In this document: positions 2,540 through 35,175 of the stretch, piece by piece
How positions within the stretch are numbered: position 1 is the first letter of the stretch
How the letters are laid out: each line of letters begins with the position of its first letter
From: Octopus sinensis
Taxonomy: Eukaryota
DNA: 45,808 nucleotides
NCBI RefSeq assembly: GCF_006345805.1
Contig: NW_021828078.1
Location: forward strand, 1 to 45,808
Direction: 5' to 3'
The notes under the pieces: model-generated
Databases searched by the model: none
The model's input: the letters and a program-made list of their open reading frames with translations, nothing else
Told to the model about the DNA's origin: nothing
Translations under genes and position numbers: made by a program

Positions 2540-2715
2540 ATAGATATATATATATATATTATATTTCGATGGGTGATGAATTATCCTATTTTACCGTCAA
2601 CATGGAAAATTGGATGAACAAATACCAGGTAGCAATTCACGTCAGAAAACACAGTTGAAGCGACACATCCAAGGTAGAAACTCCGGTTCATGTGCAGAAT
2701 TTGTGTATTATATAT

Positions 2716-3052
2716 GAAAAAATAAATAAATGGAGTTGAACGAAGGTGTTGATAAAATTCCTTTACTTACGGCATATGTTTCGAAGACAACATGGTTTTA
2801 TTCCAAATGAATAAACGGTGTAAGATGCAATCTTCTCATCAGGAAAGAAAGGGAGCCTCTCTCACCACAGACAATATAATAATACAATGACTGCATTGTC
2901 TTGTTGATGAGAGAGGCTCCCTTTCTTTCCTGATGAGAAGATTGCATCTTACACCGTTTATTCCTTTGGAATAAAACATGTTGTCTTCGAACATATGTCA
3001 AAAGTAAAGAATTTATCAACATCTTCGTTCAACTCCATTTATTTATTTATTC
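2716..3052. mobile_element. ~340 bp foldback element with two back-to-back hammerhead motifs, inserted in (TA)n; second copy at 3987-4330
   Basis: Arms of about 155-160 bp are near-perfect reverse complements around a short AT-rich centre (~2875-2895). The arms contain CTGATGA-gaaga...tcttc-GAAA-catat-G(T/C)C, and both flanks are TA repeats. Confidence 0.8.
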
Positions 3053-3401
3053 ATATATATATATATGTGTGTGTGTGGTGTGTATATATATACATATAAA
3101 TATTGAACAATGAGAATGAGCTTTCAACACCGCATTGGTGGTTATAATTTCTTTACTTGTGTATTAAGGCTACCGCTGGTTTCATGTTAAGAGAATATCT
3201 AAATATCTTAAGAAAAGTGTTAAGGTATTAAGATATTTTCTTAGCATGAAACCAATGGTAGCCTTAATACACAGCTAAAGAATATATATATATATTTATA
3301 TATGTATATATATATATATGTATATATTTAGTTGAAATTTACAGAAAAACAAAAAAAAAACCAAGACAGGTGTATAAACAGCAAACAGGAAAGGTGAGAA
3401 A

Positions 3402-3586: not shown

Positions 3587-4193
3587 ACACAGACATATAA
3601 TATATCATATGTGCATATATATATTATATGTGTAGATTGCTTGGAGACATAGGCGTGTTATAAAAACTTGGCTAGACCCGTATCTTCAAAGCATGAAACT
3701 AATAGCAGTTAGTATCATTATATTTTGTACATTGTTGATGTCCCCTTGAGAGAAAATAAACTATTCGAATAAATAATATATATATATATATATATATATA
3801 CTATATATATATATATATATAATATATATTTTCGAGGGTGAATGAATTATCCTATGTTTACCGTCAACATGGAAAATTGGATGAACAAATACCAGGGTAG
3901 CAAATTCACGTCAGAAACACAGTTGAAGCGACACATCCAAAGGTAGAAACTCCGGGTTCATGTGCAGAAATTTGTGTATTATATATGAAAAAATATATAA
4001 ATGGAGTTGAACGAAGGTGTTGATAAAATTCCTTTACTTACGGAATATGTTTCGAAGACAACATGGTTTTATTCCAAATGAATAAACGGTGTAAGATGCA
4101 ATCTTTCTGGAAGGAAAGAAAGGAGCCTCTCTCACCAACAAGACAATATAATAATTACAATGACTGCTTGTCTTGTTGATGATGAGAGAGGCT

Positions 4194-4287
4194 CCCTTTC
4201 TTTCCTGATGAGAGATTGCATCTTACACCGTTTATTCCTTTGGAATAAAACCATGTTGTCTTCGAAACATATGTCAAAAGTAAAGGA
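4194..4287 (+). ncRNA. Hammerhead ribozyme motif (type I topology, palindromic helix III ACATATGT, GUC site); duplicate at 2919-3009
   Basis: CTGATGA at 4205-4211, GAAA at 4264-4267, ACATATGT at 4267-4274, GTC triplet at 4273-4275. Helix II ga(a)ga/tcttc encloses an inner hairpin tttattcc/ggaataaa. Helix I cctttctttc pairs with aaaagtaaagg, with a mismatch at the first pair. Confidence 0.65.
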
Positions 4288-4330
4288 ATTTTATCAACAT
4301 CTTCGTTCAACTCCATTTATTTATTTATTC

Positions 4331-4362
<32 letters not shown>

Positions 4363-5580: not shown

Positions 5581-5630
<50 letters not shown>

Positions 5631-5816
5631 ATATAGGAAAATGGAGAATTTAGTTTTTGGTCATCAACGTACGGATATATAATGTTAGATTATTTATTCA
5701 TTTTACAAATGAGGACATCAAAAGCATATAAAAATATTATATAAATCAATAGATAAGATAATAATAATAAAATACAGATTTTAGAAGTCATATTATAAAT
5801 TAATGAGATCCTAAAA

Positions 5817-5964
5817 ATTACTTCTTACAGCTGTTTCAGCCTATGGTCAAAAGTGAATCTAATTTTCATTGCCTATACATGTCAACATACTAAGGTTGTA
5901 GGCATTAAAAAAAATATAATACTTATATGTTAAAGAACCATAGGCCTCGTCAGAGGTTATAATT
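5817..5964 (-). ncRNA. Motif-complete hammerhead ribozyme with an 11-bp helix II and ~87-nt loop II
   Basis: Minus strand: CTGACGA (5953..5947); helix II GGCCTATGGTT (5946..5936) pairing with GACCATAGGCT (5848..5838); GAAA (5837..5834); palindrome ACAGCTGT (5834..5827); GUA triplet (5828..5826); helix I CT/AG plus AATTAT/GTAATT across an internal loop. Confidence 0.72.
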
Positions 5965-6268
5965 AACATAAAAAATATTAATAATAATATTAATATATTA
6001 AGCAAGATGCACGTATTACTTAATATATAAAAATAAACAATAAACAAATATCCAAATATACATATATATATATACATATAAAAATACATATATACATACA
6101 TATACATACATACATAAGCAAATCGTATATACTATTCACATGCGCAAAATACATTAATGAACACCATTAAACAATATATTACATTATTGCCTACAACCTT
6201 AGTATGTTGACATCTATAGGCAATGAAAATTGGATTCATTTTTGACCATAGGCTGAAACAGCTGCAAG
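5824..6268. repeat. Inverted repeat, ~80 bp arms (5824-5903 and 6188-6268) with ~285 bp spacer
   Basis: cttacagctgtttcagcctatggtcaaaagtgaatc...aaggttgtaggca is the reverse complement of tgcctacaacctt...gattcatttttgaccataggctgaaacagctgcaag, with few mismatches. Confidence 0.9.
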
Positions 6269-6349
6269 TTTTTGGTAGGTTTTGACAGACGCATTTATGT
6301 CGATTGGGACAGTCTTATTAATGAGGAAGCATTATTATTATTATTATTA

Positions 6350-6405
<56 letters not shown>

Positions 6406-9423: not shown

Positions 9424-10131
9424 GGATTTCCTGGAAAGTTCCGAGGATGAGACTTCATGGAGAACTCCGAGGTTGGGAGTTGAGACTTCCTGGAAAATAT
9501 CGTGGAACGTTCCGAGGAGAGACTTGAGACTTCCTGGAAACTTCCGTTGATTTCCTGGAGAGTTTCGAGGATGAAACTCCATGGAAAATTCAGAGGACTT
9601 CCTGGAAAATTCCGAGGGCTTCCTGGAAAATTCCGAGGATTTCCTGCAAAGTTCCAAGAAAGAGACTTACTGGAAAACTCAGAGGACTTCCTGGAAAGTT
9701 CCGAGGATGAGACTTTAGTCTTCCTGGAAAATTCCTAGGATTTCCTGGAAAGTTCCGTGGATGAGACTTCCTCGAAAATTGAGAGGACTTCGTAGAAAGT
9801 TCCGAGGATGAGACTTCCAGTAAAATTCCGATGATTTCCTGTAAAGTTCCCAGGATGAGACTTGAGATTTTCTGGAAAATTGGGAGGATTTCCTAGGAAG
9901 TTCCGAGAAAGAGACTTCCTGGAATGTTACCTCCTGGAAAATTCCGAGGATTTCCTGGAAACTTCCGATGTTGCGACTTCCTTTGAAAATTCCGGATTTC
10001 CCTGGAAATTTCCGAGGATAAGGCTTCCTGGGAAATTCCGATGGCTTCCAGGAAACTTCCGAGGATGAGCCGTGATACTTCCTGGAAAATTTCGAGGATA
10101 CCCTGGAAAGTTCCGTGGATGAGACTTCCTG
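9424..10131. repeat. Minisatellite with mixed 21-bp and 26-bp units (core ACTTCCTGGAAA(A/G)TTCCGAGG, with or without ATGAG)
   Basis: Roughly 30 degenerate units. Short and long units often alternate, giving ~47-bp higher-order periodicity. Confidence 0.92.
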
Positions 10132-15604: not shown

Positions 15605-16007
15605 AAGGCGACGAGCTGGCAGAAACGTTAGCATGCCGGGCGAAATGTTTAGCGGCATTTCGTCTGCCGTTACGTTCTGAGTTCAAACTCCGCTGAGGTC
15701 GACTTTGCCTTTCATCCTTTCGGAGTCGATGAATTAAGTATCAGTTATGCACTGGGGTCGATGTAATCGACTTAATCTATTTGTCTGCCCTTGTTTGTCC
15801 TCTCTGTGTTTAGCCCTTTGTGGGTAGTAAAGAAATAGGTATTTCGTCTGTCTTAACGTTCTGAGTTCAAATTCCGTCGAGGTCGACTTTGCTTTTCACG
15901 CTTTCTGGGCTTATAAATTAAGTACCAGTTGCATACTGGGGTAGATCTAATCGACTGGCCCCCCTCCCCTAAAATTTCGGACCTTGTGCCAAGAGTAGAA
16001 AAGAATA
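15605..16007 (+). mobile_element. SINE family B (tRNA head, Meta-domain-like core), tandem dimer
   Basis: aaggcgacgagctggcagaaacgttagc head, B-box-like gagttcaaactcc, core gtcgactttgcctttcatcctttcggagtcgat; the body repeats after aaagaaatagg. Confidence 0.9.
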
Positions 16008-16122
16008 TTTAAACAATCACGTTTTCTTTTAAATTTTGAGGGAGGCATTGATAAAATCGGTATTAATAAAATCATGTAACAAGTCTTATTTTAATAAATT
16101 TATTCTATCTCCACTCATAGAT

Positions 16123-16700
16123 ATTCTTTTCTACTCTAGGCACAAGGCCCGAAATTTTTAGGGAGGGTGCCAGACAATTATATCGACCCTAGTACGCAAC
16201 TGGTACTTAATTTATCGACTCCGAAAGGATGGAAAGCAATGTCGACCATGGCGGAATTTGGACTCAGAACGTAAAGATAGACGAAATACCTAATTCTTTA
16301 CTACCCACAAGGGGTTAAACACAGAGAGGACAAACAAGGACAGACAAACGGATTAAGTCGATTATATCGACCCCAGCGCGTAACTGGTACTTATTTAATC
16401 GACCCCGAAAGGATGAAAGGCAAAGTCGACCTCGACGGAATTTGAACTCAGATCGTAAAGACAGACGAAATACCTGTTTATTACCCACAGGGGCCTAAAC
16501 ATAGAGGGGACAAACAAGGACAGACAAACGGATTAAGTCGATTATATCGACCCCAGTGCGTAACTGGTACTTAATTTATCGACCCCGAAAGGATGAAAGG
16601 CGAAGTCGAGCTCAGCGGAATTTGAAATCAGAACGTAGCAGCAGACGAAATACCGCTAAGCATTGCGCCCGGCGTGCTAACGATTCTGCCAGCTCGCCAC
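16123..16700 (-). mobile_element. SINE family B, tandem trimer
   Basis: Three reverse-complement copies of the body; the head ends at gccagctcgccacc (~16700). Confidence 0.9.
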
Positions 16701-17420
16701 CTTCCTCCACTCATAGATATTGCAACAAAGTCCGCCGAGCTCTCTTTACCTTTCTTCCTTTCGAGGCTGATAAAATAGGTACCAGTTGAAGACTGGAGTC
16801 GATGTAATCGACTTACCTTACTCTGAAGTTGCTGCTCTTGTGCTAAATTTTGAAATCAACATTGTCTTGTTGCTTTTTATTTTTTCCTGTGAAATAGTTA
16901 CGTTTAATCGGCTTGCTTCGCTTGTCTGTATGAATTCATGTGTGAATTGCAGGTATGCGCATGTGTCAATCTATCTGTCTTTCATTGCTCTCTTATCTTT
17001 CTGTCATTGTGACCTCAAAGCAATCGCATAGCGGGCAGTTACCCGGTGGCTTTCAAGGATCTATGGGCTCAATTTTGGTCTATATATACAATAGCTTGTA
17101 GGCAATAAATAAATACTATTGAACTCAGTGCATGAATTTGTCTGAGAACCTATAAAGCTGCTACGTCACGCACGTGCACACACAAACACACACAAAGACG
17201 ACGGGATTTGGTCGGCTCGCGGCTATAGTAGAAAACACTGAACCCGTGTGTACCACACAGCTGCATCTATGTATATATATGTTTGTATTGATATGAGCAT
17301 GAATGTGTGTATGTATGGGTATATGTATATTTGCATAGACGTACACATGTATGCATGTGTATATATATATATGTATATATATAAATACACACACAAACAC
17401 ACACACATACACACATATAT

Positions 17421-32762: not shown

Positions 32763-33180
32763 TATTTCTTTATTGCCCACAAGAGGCTAAACAGAAGGAA
32801 CAAACAAAGACAGGCAAAGGGATCAAGTCAATTATATCGACCCCAGTGCGTAACTGGTACATATTTAATTGACCCTGAAAGGATAAAAGGCAAAGTCAAC
32901 CTCGGTGGAATTTGAACTCAGAACGTAGCGGCGGACGAAATACCTATTTCTTTACTACTCACAAAGGGCTAAACACAGAGAGGACAAACAAACAAGGGCA
33001 GACAAACGGATTAAGTCGATTATATCGACCCCAGTGCGTAACTGGTACTTATTTAATCGACCCCGAAAGGATGAAAGGCAAAGTCGACCTCGGCGGAATT
33101 TGAACTCAGAACGTAACGACAGACGAAATACCGCTAAGCATTTTGCCCGGCCTGCTAAGGGTTCTGCCAGTTCGCCGCCT
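32763..33180 (-). mobile_element. SINE family B, tandem dimer
   Basis: Two reverse-complement bodies; the head ends at gccagttcgccgcct. Confidence 0.9.
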
Positions 33181-33441: not shown

Positions 33442-34106
33442 AAGAGTCGACTCAGGTGAAGAGCCAATCCCAAGCGGAGAGTTAATCCCAGAGGGAGAGT
33501 CAATCTCAGACGAAGAGTCAAACCCGGGCGAAGGGTCAATCTCAGGCAGAAAGTCAATCGCAGGCAAAGAGTCACTCTCAAGCGAAGAATCAGTCTCAGG
33601 CAGAGTCAATTTCCGGCAAAGAATCAATCCCAGACGGAAAAGTAATCTCAGGCAAAGAAAGAATCAATCACAGACGAAGAGTCAATCTCCGACGAAGAGT
33701 CAAACTCAGGTGAAGAGTCACTCTCAGGCAAAGAACTAATTACCAGCAAAGTGTCAATCTCCGGCAAAGTGTCAATCTCAGGCGAAGAGTTACTCTCAAG
33801 CGAAGAATCATTCTCAGGAGAAGATTCAATCTCCGGCAAGAGTCACTCTCAAGTGAAGAATCAATCTCAGGCGAAGAGTCAATCTCCGGCAAAAAAATCA
33901 ATTCCAGGCGGAGAGTTAATCTCGGGTAAAGAAAGAGTCAATCTCAGACGAAGAGTCAATCTCTGGCGAAGAGTCAATCTCAAACGAAGAGTCATTCTCA
34001 AGCGAAGAACCAATCTCCAGCAAAAAGTCAATCTCTGGCGAAGGGTCAGTCTCAGACGGAGAGTAAATCTCAGGCGAAGAATTAATCAGAGACGGGGAGT
34101 CAATCA
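33442..34106. repeat. 18-bp minisatellite, consensus GAGTCAATCTCAGGCGAA, about 36 units
   Basis: Regular 18-nt periodicity with scattered substitutions and a few indels; the minus strand translates as (PEIDSS)n in three broken ORFs. Confidence 0.93.
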
Positions 34107-34769: not shown

Positions 34770-35165
34770 GCGTTAGCACGCTGAGGGAAATAACTCGCGT
34801 ATAATTTCGTCTGCCGTTAGGTTGTGAGTTCAAATTCCGCCGAGGTCGACTTTGCCTTCATCCTTTCGGGGTCGATAATTAGTACATTTCGACTGGGTCG
34901 ATGTAATCGACTTCTACCTATGTCTGTCCTTGTTTGTTGCCTCTGTGTTTGTCCCCTTGTGGTAAAAAGAAATAGGTATTTCGTCTGCCGCTACGTTCTG
35001 AGTTCAAATTCCACCGAGGTCGACTTTGCCTTTCATCCTTCCAGGGTCGATTGAATAAGTCCCAGTTACACACTGGGGTCGATATAATTGACTTAATCCG
35101 TTTGTCTGTCCTTGTTTGTCCTCTCTGTGTTTAGCCCCTCGTGGGTAGTAAAGAAATAGGTATTT
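34770..35165 (+). mobile_element. SINE family B, tandem dimer (first unit degraded)
   Basis: Two bodies with gagttcaaattcc...gtcgactttgcc...ggggtcgat, ending aaagaaataggtatttc. Confidence 0.88.
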
Positions 35166-35175
35166 CTTTACGTTG

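Follow-up and report, generated by a model that had tools for sequence, protein, structure and literature searches.

A hammerhead motif with a long helix II arm marks a truncated, probably Hydra-clade Penelope-like insertion in Octopus sinensis

What is a hammerhead motif with an 87-nt insert in its helix II doing in an octopus genome, next to an inverted partial copy of itself? The question is raised by 45,808 nucleotides of Octopus sinensis (contig NW_021828078.1, positions 1 to 45,808; 'the window' below is this whole stretch at its full length), in which an earlier note described a motif-complete ribozyme. We find that it does not stand alone and is a hammerhead of the 3' repeat of a Penelope-like element (PLE), carried by a truncated copy of a repeat family. 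We regard it as very probable that we are dealing with the 3' end, hammerhead included, of a 5'-truncated Hydra-clade PLE insertion with two arms, that its long helix II arm is common to the lineage, and that cleavage is likely slow and dimer- and protein-assisted in the parent and probably absent in the window copy.

On the minus strand, positions 5953-5826 hold CUGANGA, GAAA and NUH, all present and in this order on direct reading, which is the core of a type I hammerhead; the complete core that the earlier note had claimed here is upheld by this reading and by a descriptor scan (Table 1). Helix II pairs 5946-5936 with 5848-5838 over the 11 bp originally counted, if two G-U pairs are included, and the 87-nt insert (5935-5849) lies between its two strands. 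The GAAA box (5837-5834), the palindrome ACAGCTGT (5834-5827) and the GTA triplet (5828-5826) follow, and both the palindromic helix III and the predicted cut at 5826|5825 of the minus strand read as first stated. Next to the core, helix I has 2 bp, then an internal loop and 6 further bp (with 5816-5821); it had been called weak beside the core, in agreement with these two contiguous pairs and a predicted pairing probability of ~0.

Table 1 Features of the insertion in the window.
Feature	Position	Strand	Basis
Main arm, 5'-truncated 3' end (pLTR / 3' UTR) of a putative Hydra-clade Penelope-like element	5616..6185	-	90% over 581 columns to L006
(TA)n microsatellite, insertion target; overlaps the element's 3' end	5583..5635	.	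Repeat scan; nearly all copies end on (TA)n
CUGACGA core box (DNA CTGACGA)	5947..5953	-	Direct reading and descriptor scan
Helix II arm, 109 nt: 11-bp basal stem and 87-nt partly paired extension	5838..5946	-	Descriptor scan, folding
GAAA box, palindromic helix III ACAGCUGU, GUA cleavage triplet	5826..5837	-	Direct reading and descriptor scan
Helix I 5' strand	5954..5964	-	Direct reading; pairing probability ~0 in the window copy
Helix I 3' strand	5816..5825	-	Direct reading, folding
Inverted second arm, adjoining the 5' truncation point	6184..6268	+	Descriptor scan, family mapping

The motif is not a chance occurrence. The 5826|5825 site is the sole descriptor match on both strands of the whole window, and 200 block-wise dinucleotide shuffles of the window produced one match with a helix II of at least 5 bp and none with 11 bp. 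A loop II of the short type is absent from it. The published descriptor asks for a loop 2 of 3-10 nt, a stem II of 3-7 bp and a stem I of at least 3 bp, as given in the part of the source covered here (Cervera and de la Pena 2014, PMC4209133), and under these limits the window motif cannot be found. Rfam returned no hammerhead model among six matches up to E 10 for 5700-6330, and none among the 150 of 233 matches listed for the whole window, which are microsatellite-driven miRNA matches. The expectation that standard short-loop descriptors miss the motif thus holds for the published descriptor and for Rfam. Minimum-energy folding of the whole motif of the window copy gave z -1.21, no better than shuffles.

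The window stretch has 709 candidates in the 2.7-Gb genome, of which the 40 scored are 88-100% identical to it, and a 21-mer from its 3' half has 171 exact genomic matches against 0 for the reversed control. When the copies are mapped on L006, a natural copy, their 5' ends vary and their 3' ends are fixed at two sites, ~210 and ~380 nt beyond the cut, each running into (TA)n; the main arm in the window (6185-5616) finishes on a TA run at the first of these. Among 69 distinct junctions, in a set that takes in loci chosen for matching across the cut, the first end accounts for 38 and the second for 20; 10 lie elsewhere, and a single one, that of the window's own inverted piece, coincides with the cut. 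For 31 pieces chosen by the 21-mer only, the corresponding counts are 16, 11, 4 and 0. Inverted arms adjoining the 5' truncation are common in the family, and in all 13 head-to-head pairs that we read by eye one arm lies at each fixed end, as it does in locus L298. The inverted piece, which the earlier note had described as a partial copy, is the ordinary second arm of Penelope insertions. Partial tandems (pLTRs), 5' truncation, an inverted truncated 5' copy and an optional 3' tail, which are the criteria for EN+ PLEs, all occur in the family. A truncation hot spot inside the arm, suggested by 13 of 30 copies being cut there, was dropped, as 5' ends in the window's subfamily are fairly even. 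Contigs of family relatives occur in four of the 24 listed runs, those guessed to be RNA, and some span the cut, with ends, strand and level not readable from contigs.

Better-preserved copies connect the repeat to a coding region. At L308, a pLTR 82% identical to the window element is followed by the tail, a short leader and the start of an ORF with RWK and DKT, and two loci with a pLTR 88% identical to it (L091 and L094) have the endonuclease part upstream. A related subfamily is represented by L298 (near G000:C4 78.52 Mb) and L299 (near G000:C26 1.19 Mb), each with a 960-codon open frame flanked by two hammerheads, which lie 5,570 bp apart in the former and 5,602 bp apart in the latter. Both have Asn-rich insertions in the frame, a ~2-kb 3' UTR and, in each pLTR, a hammerhead whose arm is 85 nt long and whose triplet is GUC, and L298 carries an inverted third hammerhead copy in addition, whose arm ends at the other fixed site. 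Judged by their sequences, these two are apparently young, intact autonomous Hydra-type elements.

Their frame contains YRDD and then a C-terminal VYQC...VYIG, that is, a reverse transcriptase (RT) followed by a GIY-YIG endonuclease (EN). The Hydra pattern is RWK near the N terminus and DKT in place of DKG; L298 has RWR and DKT where L308 has RWK and DKT, and the translations of L096 and L298 show, by eye, a CxCX5C linker with CxxC and CxH around the EN and no CCHH. Published Hydra proteins align by eye with the family ORF over its whole length. These motifs and the by-eye protein comparison point to a Hydra-clade Penelope-like element as the parent. Pfam gave nothing significant for five ORF pieces, a PDB sequence search with the ORF gave nothing significant, and the window itself has no ORF match. 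With a 5.57-kb unit and an 85-nt arm, L298 lies outside the Hydra size and short-loop hammerhead, which are typical of the clade and not defining. A Naiad origin was considered because of the 'half cores' of that clade and rejected, the endonuclease being C-terminal here and N-terminal in Naiad. Named relatives come from Octopus and Argonauta, with 44 matches among 7,802 candidates.

The long arm is not peculiar to the window copy. Genome-wide, copies with an exact core number 1,310 when the two boxes lie 64-94 nt apart and 982 when they lie 95-120 nt apart, against 0 in reversed controls in both cases; the core was set by the search pattern in these spacing searches and in the covariation set, so that its invariance there is circular. 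For pairing and folding we took 52 long-armed copies (the window copy, 31 taken from the first 30 loci, and a further 20 chosen by hand to add diversity), of which 45 were aligned after five further copies of one well-sampled subfamily and the poorly folding outliers L195 and L212 had been dropped. Across the 45 rows, with a mean column identity of 56%, the pairs named for helices I and II are formed in 80.3% of cells, compared to 67.5 +/- 1.1% in shuffled and 24-54% in slid alignments, and 71 cells carry double changes compared to 31 in shuffles; the 71 trace to a handful of subfamily-level events and are not 71 independent ones. The basal pairs of helix II are kept in 44/45, 38/45 and 44/45 rows, with 8, 6 and 8 double changes, and those of helix I in 45/45 and 43/45 rows for pairs 1-2 and 34/44, with 10 double changes, for the third. 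The base of helix II covaries between subfamilies. The genome search and the examination of helix II that the earlier note had proposed have thus been carried out, yielding a family whose basal pairs covary from one subfamily to another.

In comparison with shuffles, the folding z falls below -2 for the arm in 31 of 52 copies, for its inner part in 20, for the upstream flank in 11 and for the downstream flank in one. In the window copy the arm reaches -3.1 and the inner part -0.8. L298, a member of the intact subfamily, has an arm that folds as a near-continuous rod (-38 kcal/mol) whose basal pairs reach a probability of ~1. RNAalifold recovered only three helix II pairs, preferred a rival CUG/CAG pairing and gave no consensus structure for the insert. 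The 87 nt first taken for a loop II are, according to these predictions, the inner part of a long imperfect hairpin, decayed in the window copy. Such an arm would be tolerated because its self-folding unites the two core boxes as a short helix II does.

Further repeats in the window and beyond it bear hammerheads of other kinds. Positions 2709-3066 and 3980-4346 are near-identical head-to-head insertions (94% over 380 bp) of a second hammerhead family, with the palindrome ACATATGT, a 53-nt helix II arm in relatives and 1,962 genomic candidates; the pair may be a local duplication. The 2716-3052 element of the earlier note lies in the first, and its second copy spans 3972-4348. The 2716-3052 element failed the descriptor because both arms in the window have damaged cores, and its genomic relatives are intact. 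Hydra-type protein homology lies near 7 of 24 loci of this family, and the element most likely represents a further family within that clade of retroelements. The earlier note had argued from its shared architecture with our motif that the latter was not due to chance, and the conclusion stands for our motif on the shuffles, genome counts and covariation; the supporting element itself looks like a member of the same clade and is not independent. A big short-armed family with the same helix III palindrome as the window's (L312-L319) has 1,898 matches, mostly with 21- or 29-nt arms, and L318 has two such copies in tandem, 295 bp apart; no tail or ORF homology to the window's family was seen in eight of its loci. 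Elsewhere in the window, 15605-16703 holds inverted repeats nested in one another and, at 16177-16654, a SINE-like repeat in a 180-bp tandem, with further occurrences of this repeat at 32988-33180 and 34967-35166, and minisatellites occupy 9525-10131 (47/21-bp period) and 33442-34105 (18-bp period, ~37 copies).

To examine the core apart from the pattern that defines it, the 5' half and the 3' half were each searched alone, with 30 copies apiece. In the 5'-half set, 28 of the 30 have the 3' half 89-102 nt downstream, G12, A13, A14 and U16.1 are kept in 27-28 of these 28 and A15.1 in 22, and the palindrome is maintained through a double change in two. The 30 copies of the 3'-half set comprise 10 with an intact CUGANGA, 4 with CCGAAGA, 3 with other damage and 13 truncated inside the arm. 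As to preferential conservation of the core, which the earlier note had made one of its tests, within copies the core is not clearly above the neighbouring stems, and between subfamilies core, spacing and pairing persist. The former is the expectation for neutral decay after insertion, and the latter makes the case for selection on the core. A subfamily with the helix III ACGGCCGT (L256, L271) shows a palindrome-preserving double change. A long-armed subfamily with CCGAAGA (U4 to C) has nonetheless amplified (L215, L231, L237, L243, L302, L307) and lies downstream of the ORF in two loci. This amplified U4C lineage weakens the selection argument.

The amplification of U4C copies is also the first reason to ask whether the core is a vestige, cleavage being no longer needed and the hairpin either serving some other function (protein binding, RNA stability) or simply being tolerated. 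Genomic ends are not enriched at the cut site; in eight of eight copies the hammerhead fold is less stable than the minimum-energy fold, by 4.7-10.1 kcal/mol; and in the covered part of the work on the Poseidon element PAc of Anolis, ribozyme mutants insert in vitro without loss and no RNA reads start or end at the cut (PMC11167929). We nevertheless judge a vestigial core unlikely. The spacing and pairing of both boxes are kept across subfamilies despite the 56% mean column identity, the palindrome survives double change and the triplet stays NUH. Moreover, U4C is reported to keep sufficient activity in vivo in a viroid (PMC3088659), and a forced 2-bp helix III is always penalised by energy models.

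Under the favoured reading, of a hammerhead that still serves the parent element, cleavage there is likely to be dimeric and protein-assisted, by analogy with described relatives. In the window copy, folding gives helix III an intramolecular probability of 0 and an intermolecular palindrome duplex of -11.1 kcal/mol, so that the dimer suggested in the earlier note agrees with what a palindromic helix III would predict. The parent RNA would be transcribed from the upstream pLTR, as published work on PLEs suggests, and two ribozyme copies would pair via ACAGCUGU to form helix III and be cut after GUA or GUC. The element's protein would nick both strands of a TA run, again following published PLE work, reverse transcription would start at two internal sites ~210 and ~380 nt past the ribozyme, one per arm, and the two truncated cDNAs would be joined head to head. 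For the window copy, whose activity had been called uncertain, models of folding counsel the same caution: helices I and III have a probability of ~0 and helix II 0.4-0.6, and the hammerhead fold lies 9.6 kcal/mol above the minimum, compared to 5.2 in L298. In a predicted read-through RNA the inverted arm pairs with the main arm and the 3' half of the ribozyme lies in a long duplex (-200 kcal/mol overall). Lacking an ORF, weak in helix I and with half of its ribozyme predicted to be masked by the antisense arm in such an RNA, this copy is probably inactive.

The inverted arm is 94% identical over 85 nt to 5908-5824 and runs from 83 nt ahead of the cut site to 2 nt beyond it, without CUGANGA and with GCA in place of GUA. 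The partial copy and its GCA were thus correctly described before, with its start at 6184 and not 6188. It is shorter than in relatives. As the main arm ends at the first fixed site, its partner would be expected to reach the second; it stops at +2 past the cut, without a TA flank on that side. One could read this end as a record of cleavage in vivo, the arm having been copied from ribozyme-cut RNA, and its position 2 nt past the predicted cut is what speaks for that. We find this very unlikely, since the window's own is the one end in 69 at the cut, none of the 31 pieces selected by the 21-mer ends there, and the ends of other shortened arms are dispersed (-12, +35, +71 to +95), several of them lying at later insertions. 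The truncated arm and missing TA flank fit a later loss or deletion. Directly past the arm, 6269-6405 begins with ~60-64 nt that match no other compared locus, followed by (ATT)n; this unmatched sequence likewise counts against a cleavage record. Cleavage as the cause of the arm's end was accordingly rejected for want of any enrichment of ends at the cut, and the unique end beside the cut is probably incidental.

An independent, active host ribozyme, which would cut a transcript of this locus as a monomer with the inverted piece as its regulator, appears most improbable: every core nucleotide is intact, the basal helix II has 11 bp and the inverted piece is able to pair with the 3' half, but the window copy is one among hundreds of similar truncated copies, its helices are predicted to form as poorly as described above, the inverted arm is a generic insertion product, and in read-through RNA it would lock the 3' half in a long duplex. 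A non-autonomous retrozyme, a short tandem unit replicating via circular RNA, is scarcely credible, for although a type I hammerhead does sit in a non-coding repeat and a PLE pLTR origin has been proposed for retrozymes (in the covered part of bioRxiv 10.64898/2026.07.22.740005), no short tandem units were seen, longer copies run upstream through kilobases of UTR into an ORF, and this ORF link largely refutes the idea.

Measured against known systems, in the parts of each source covered here, the hammerhead-bearing PLE insertion that we favour is closest to the Hydra clade (Craig et al. 2021, PMC8557442), with which it shares a single ORF of RT then GIY-YIG, the RWK, DKT, CxCX5C, CxxC and CxH motifs, (TA)n targets, a type I hammerhead in the 3' repeat and an inverted truncated 5' copy. 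The helix III of ACAG..CTGT type is like that of Hydra-1_aMil, Penelope-1_NV and Penelope-1/2_SK in File S2 of that work. The arm differs: all Hydra rows of File S2 give a loop 2 of 3-10 nt, the longest loops there (29-35 nt) belong to two spike-moss elements, and the helix II arm here, at 85-117 nt, is about five times longer than in the relatives described in the covered part. The sole octopus Hydra listed in File S2, Hydra-1_Obim, has a different hammerhead with an 8-nt loop. Hydra elements are usually <3 kb (PMC8557442), compared to a unit of 5.6 kb with a ~2-kb 3' UTR here. Minimal PLE hammerheads, as far as the covered part of PMC4209133 goes, share the type I topology, the short helix I, a palindromic helix III predicting dimer cleavage, and truncated copies that are scattered or paired on opposite strands; they cleave poorly in vitro, and dimer pairing has been proposed for them (PMC4209133).

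For PAc (Frangieh et al. 2024, PMC11167929), the covered part reports a ribozyme that needs the element's protein, insertion in vitro without need of cleavage, cutting and extension of both DNA strands, and two internal RT start sites that match two genomic 3' ends. The octopus family resembles it in having two fixed 3' ends and a hammerhead in the pLTR. In PAc the tail is 30-40 bp and the ribozyme overlaps the start codon, whereas here ~170 nt separate the two ends and the start of the ORF lies ~520 nt beyond the cut. Metazoan non-LTR retrozymes share a type I hammerhead and repeated non-coding DNA related to PLE pLTRs, in the covered parts of PMC7229834 and bioRxiv 10.64898/2026.07.22.740005; the window's family is without a short tandem unit and has its own ORF. 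Earlier publications already describe the hammerheads of PLE repeats, the Hydra clade, its TA targeting and the inverted arms. What is added here is the scale of the long-armed family, the covariation test and the intact autonomous carriers; our literature search, incomplete in coverage, turned up no PLE hammerhead described as having a long helix II arm.

The single window copy is of little importance alone. What hammerheads do in Penelope-like elements is a question in the field, and the lineage described here shows that the motif can retain a structured arm of 85-115 nt while being amplified many times over. The persistence of such arms means that censuses with a loop II limit of ~10 nt undercount these ribozymes and may mislabel elements as ribozyme-free. 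Intact young copies with two ribozymes, together with natural short-arm and U4C variants in one genome, form a comparison set for cleavage assays. We entertain, tentatively and at somewhat less than an even chance, that the long arm is a selected functional module, such as a site where the RT-endonuclease docks and thereby turns cleavage on, and that current descriptors overlook a widespread class of long-armed hammerheads. If that were true, this genome would offer at least two thousand intact-core copies, together with intact elements, for testing what the hammerheads of Penelope elements are for.
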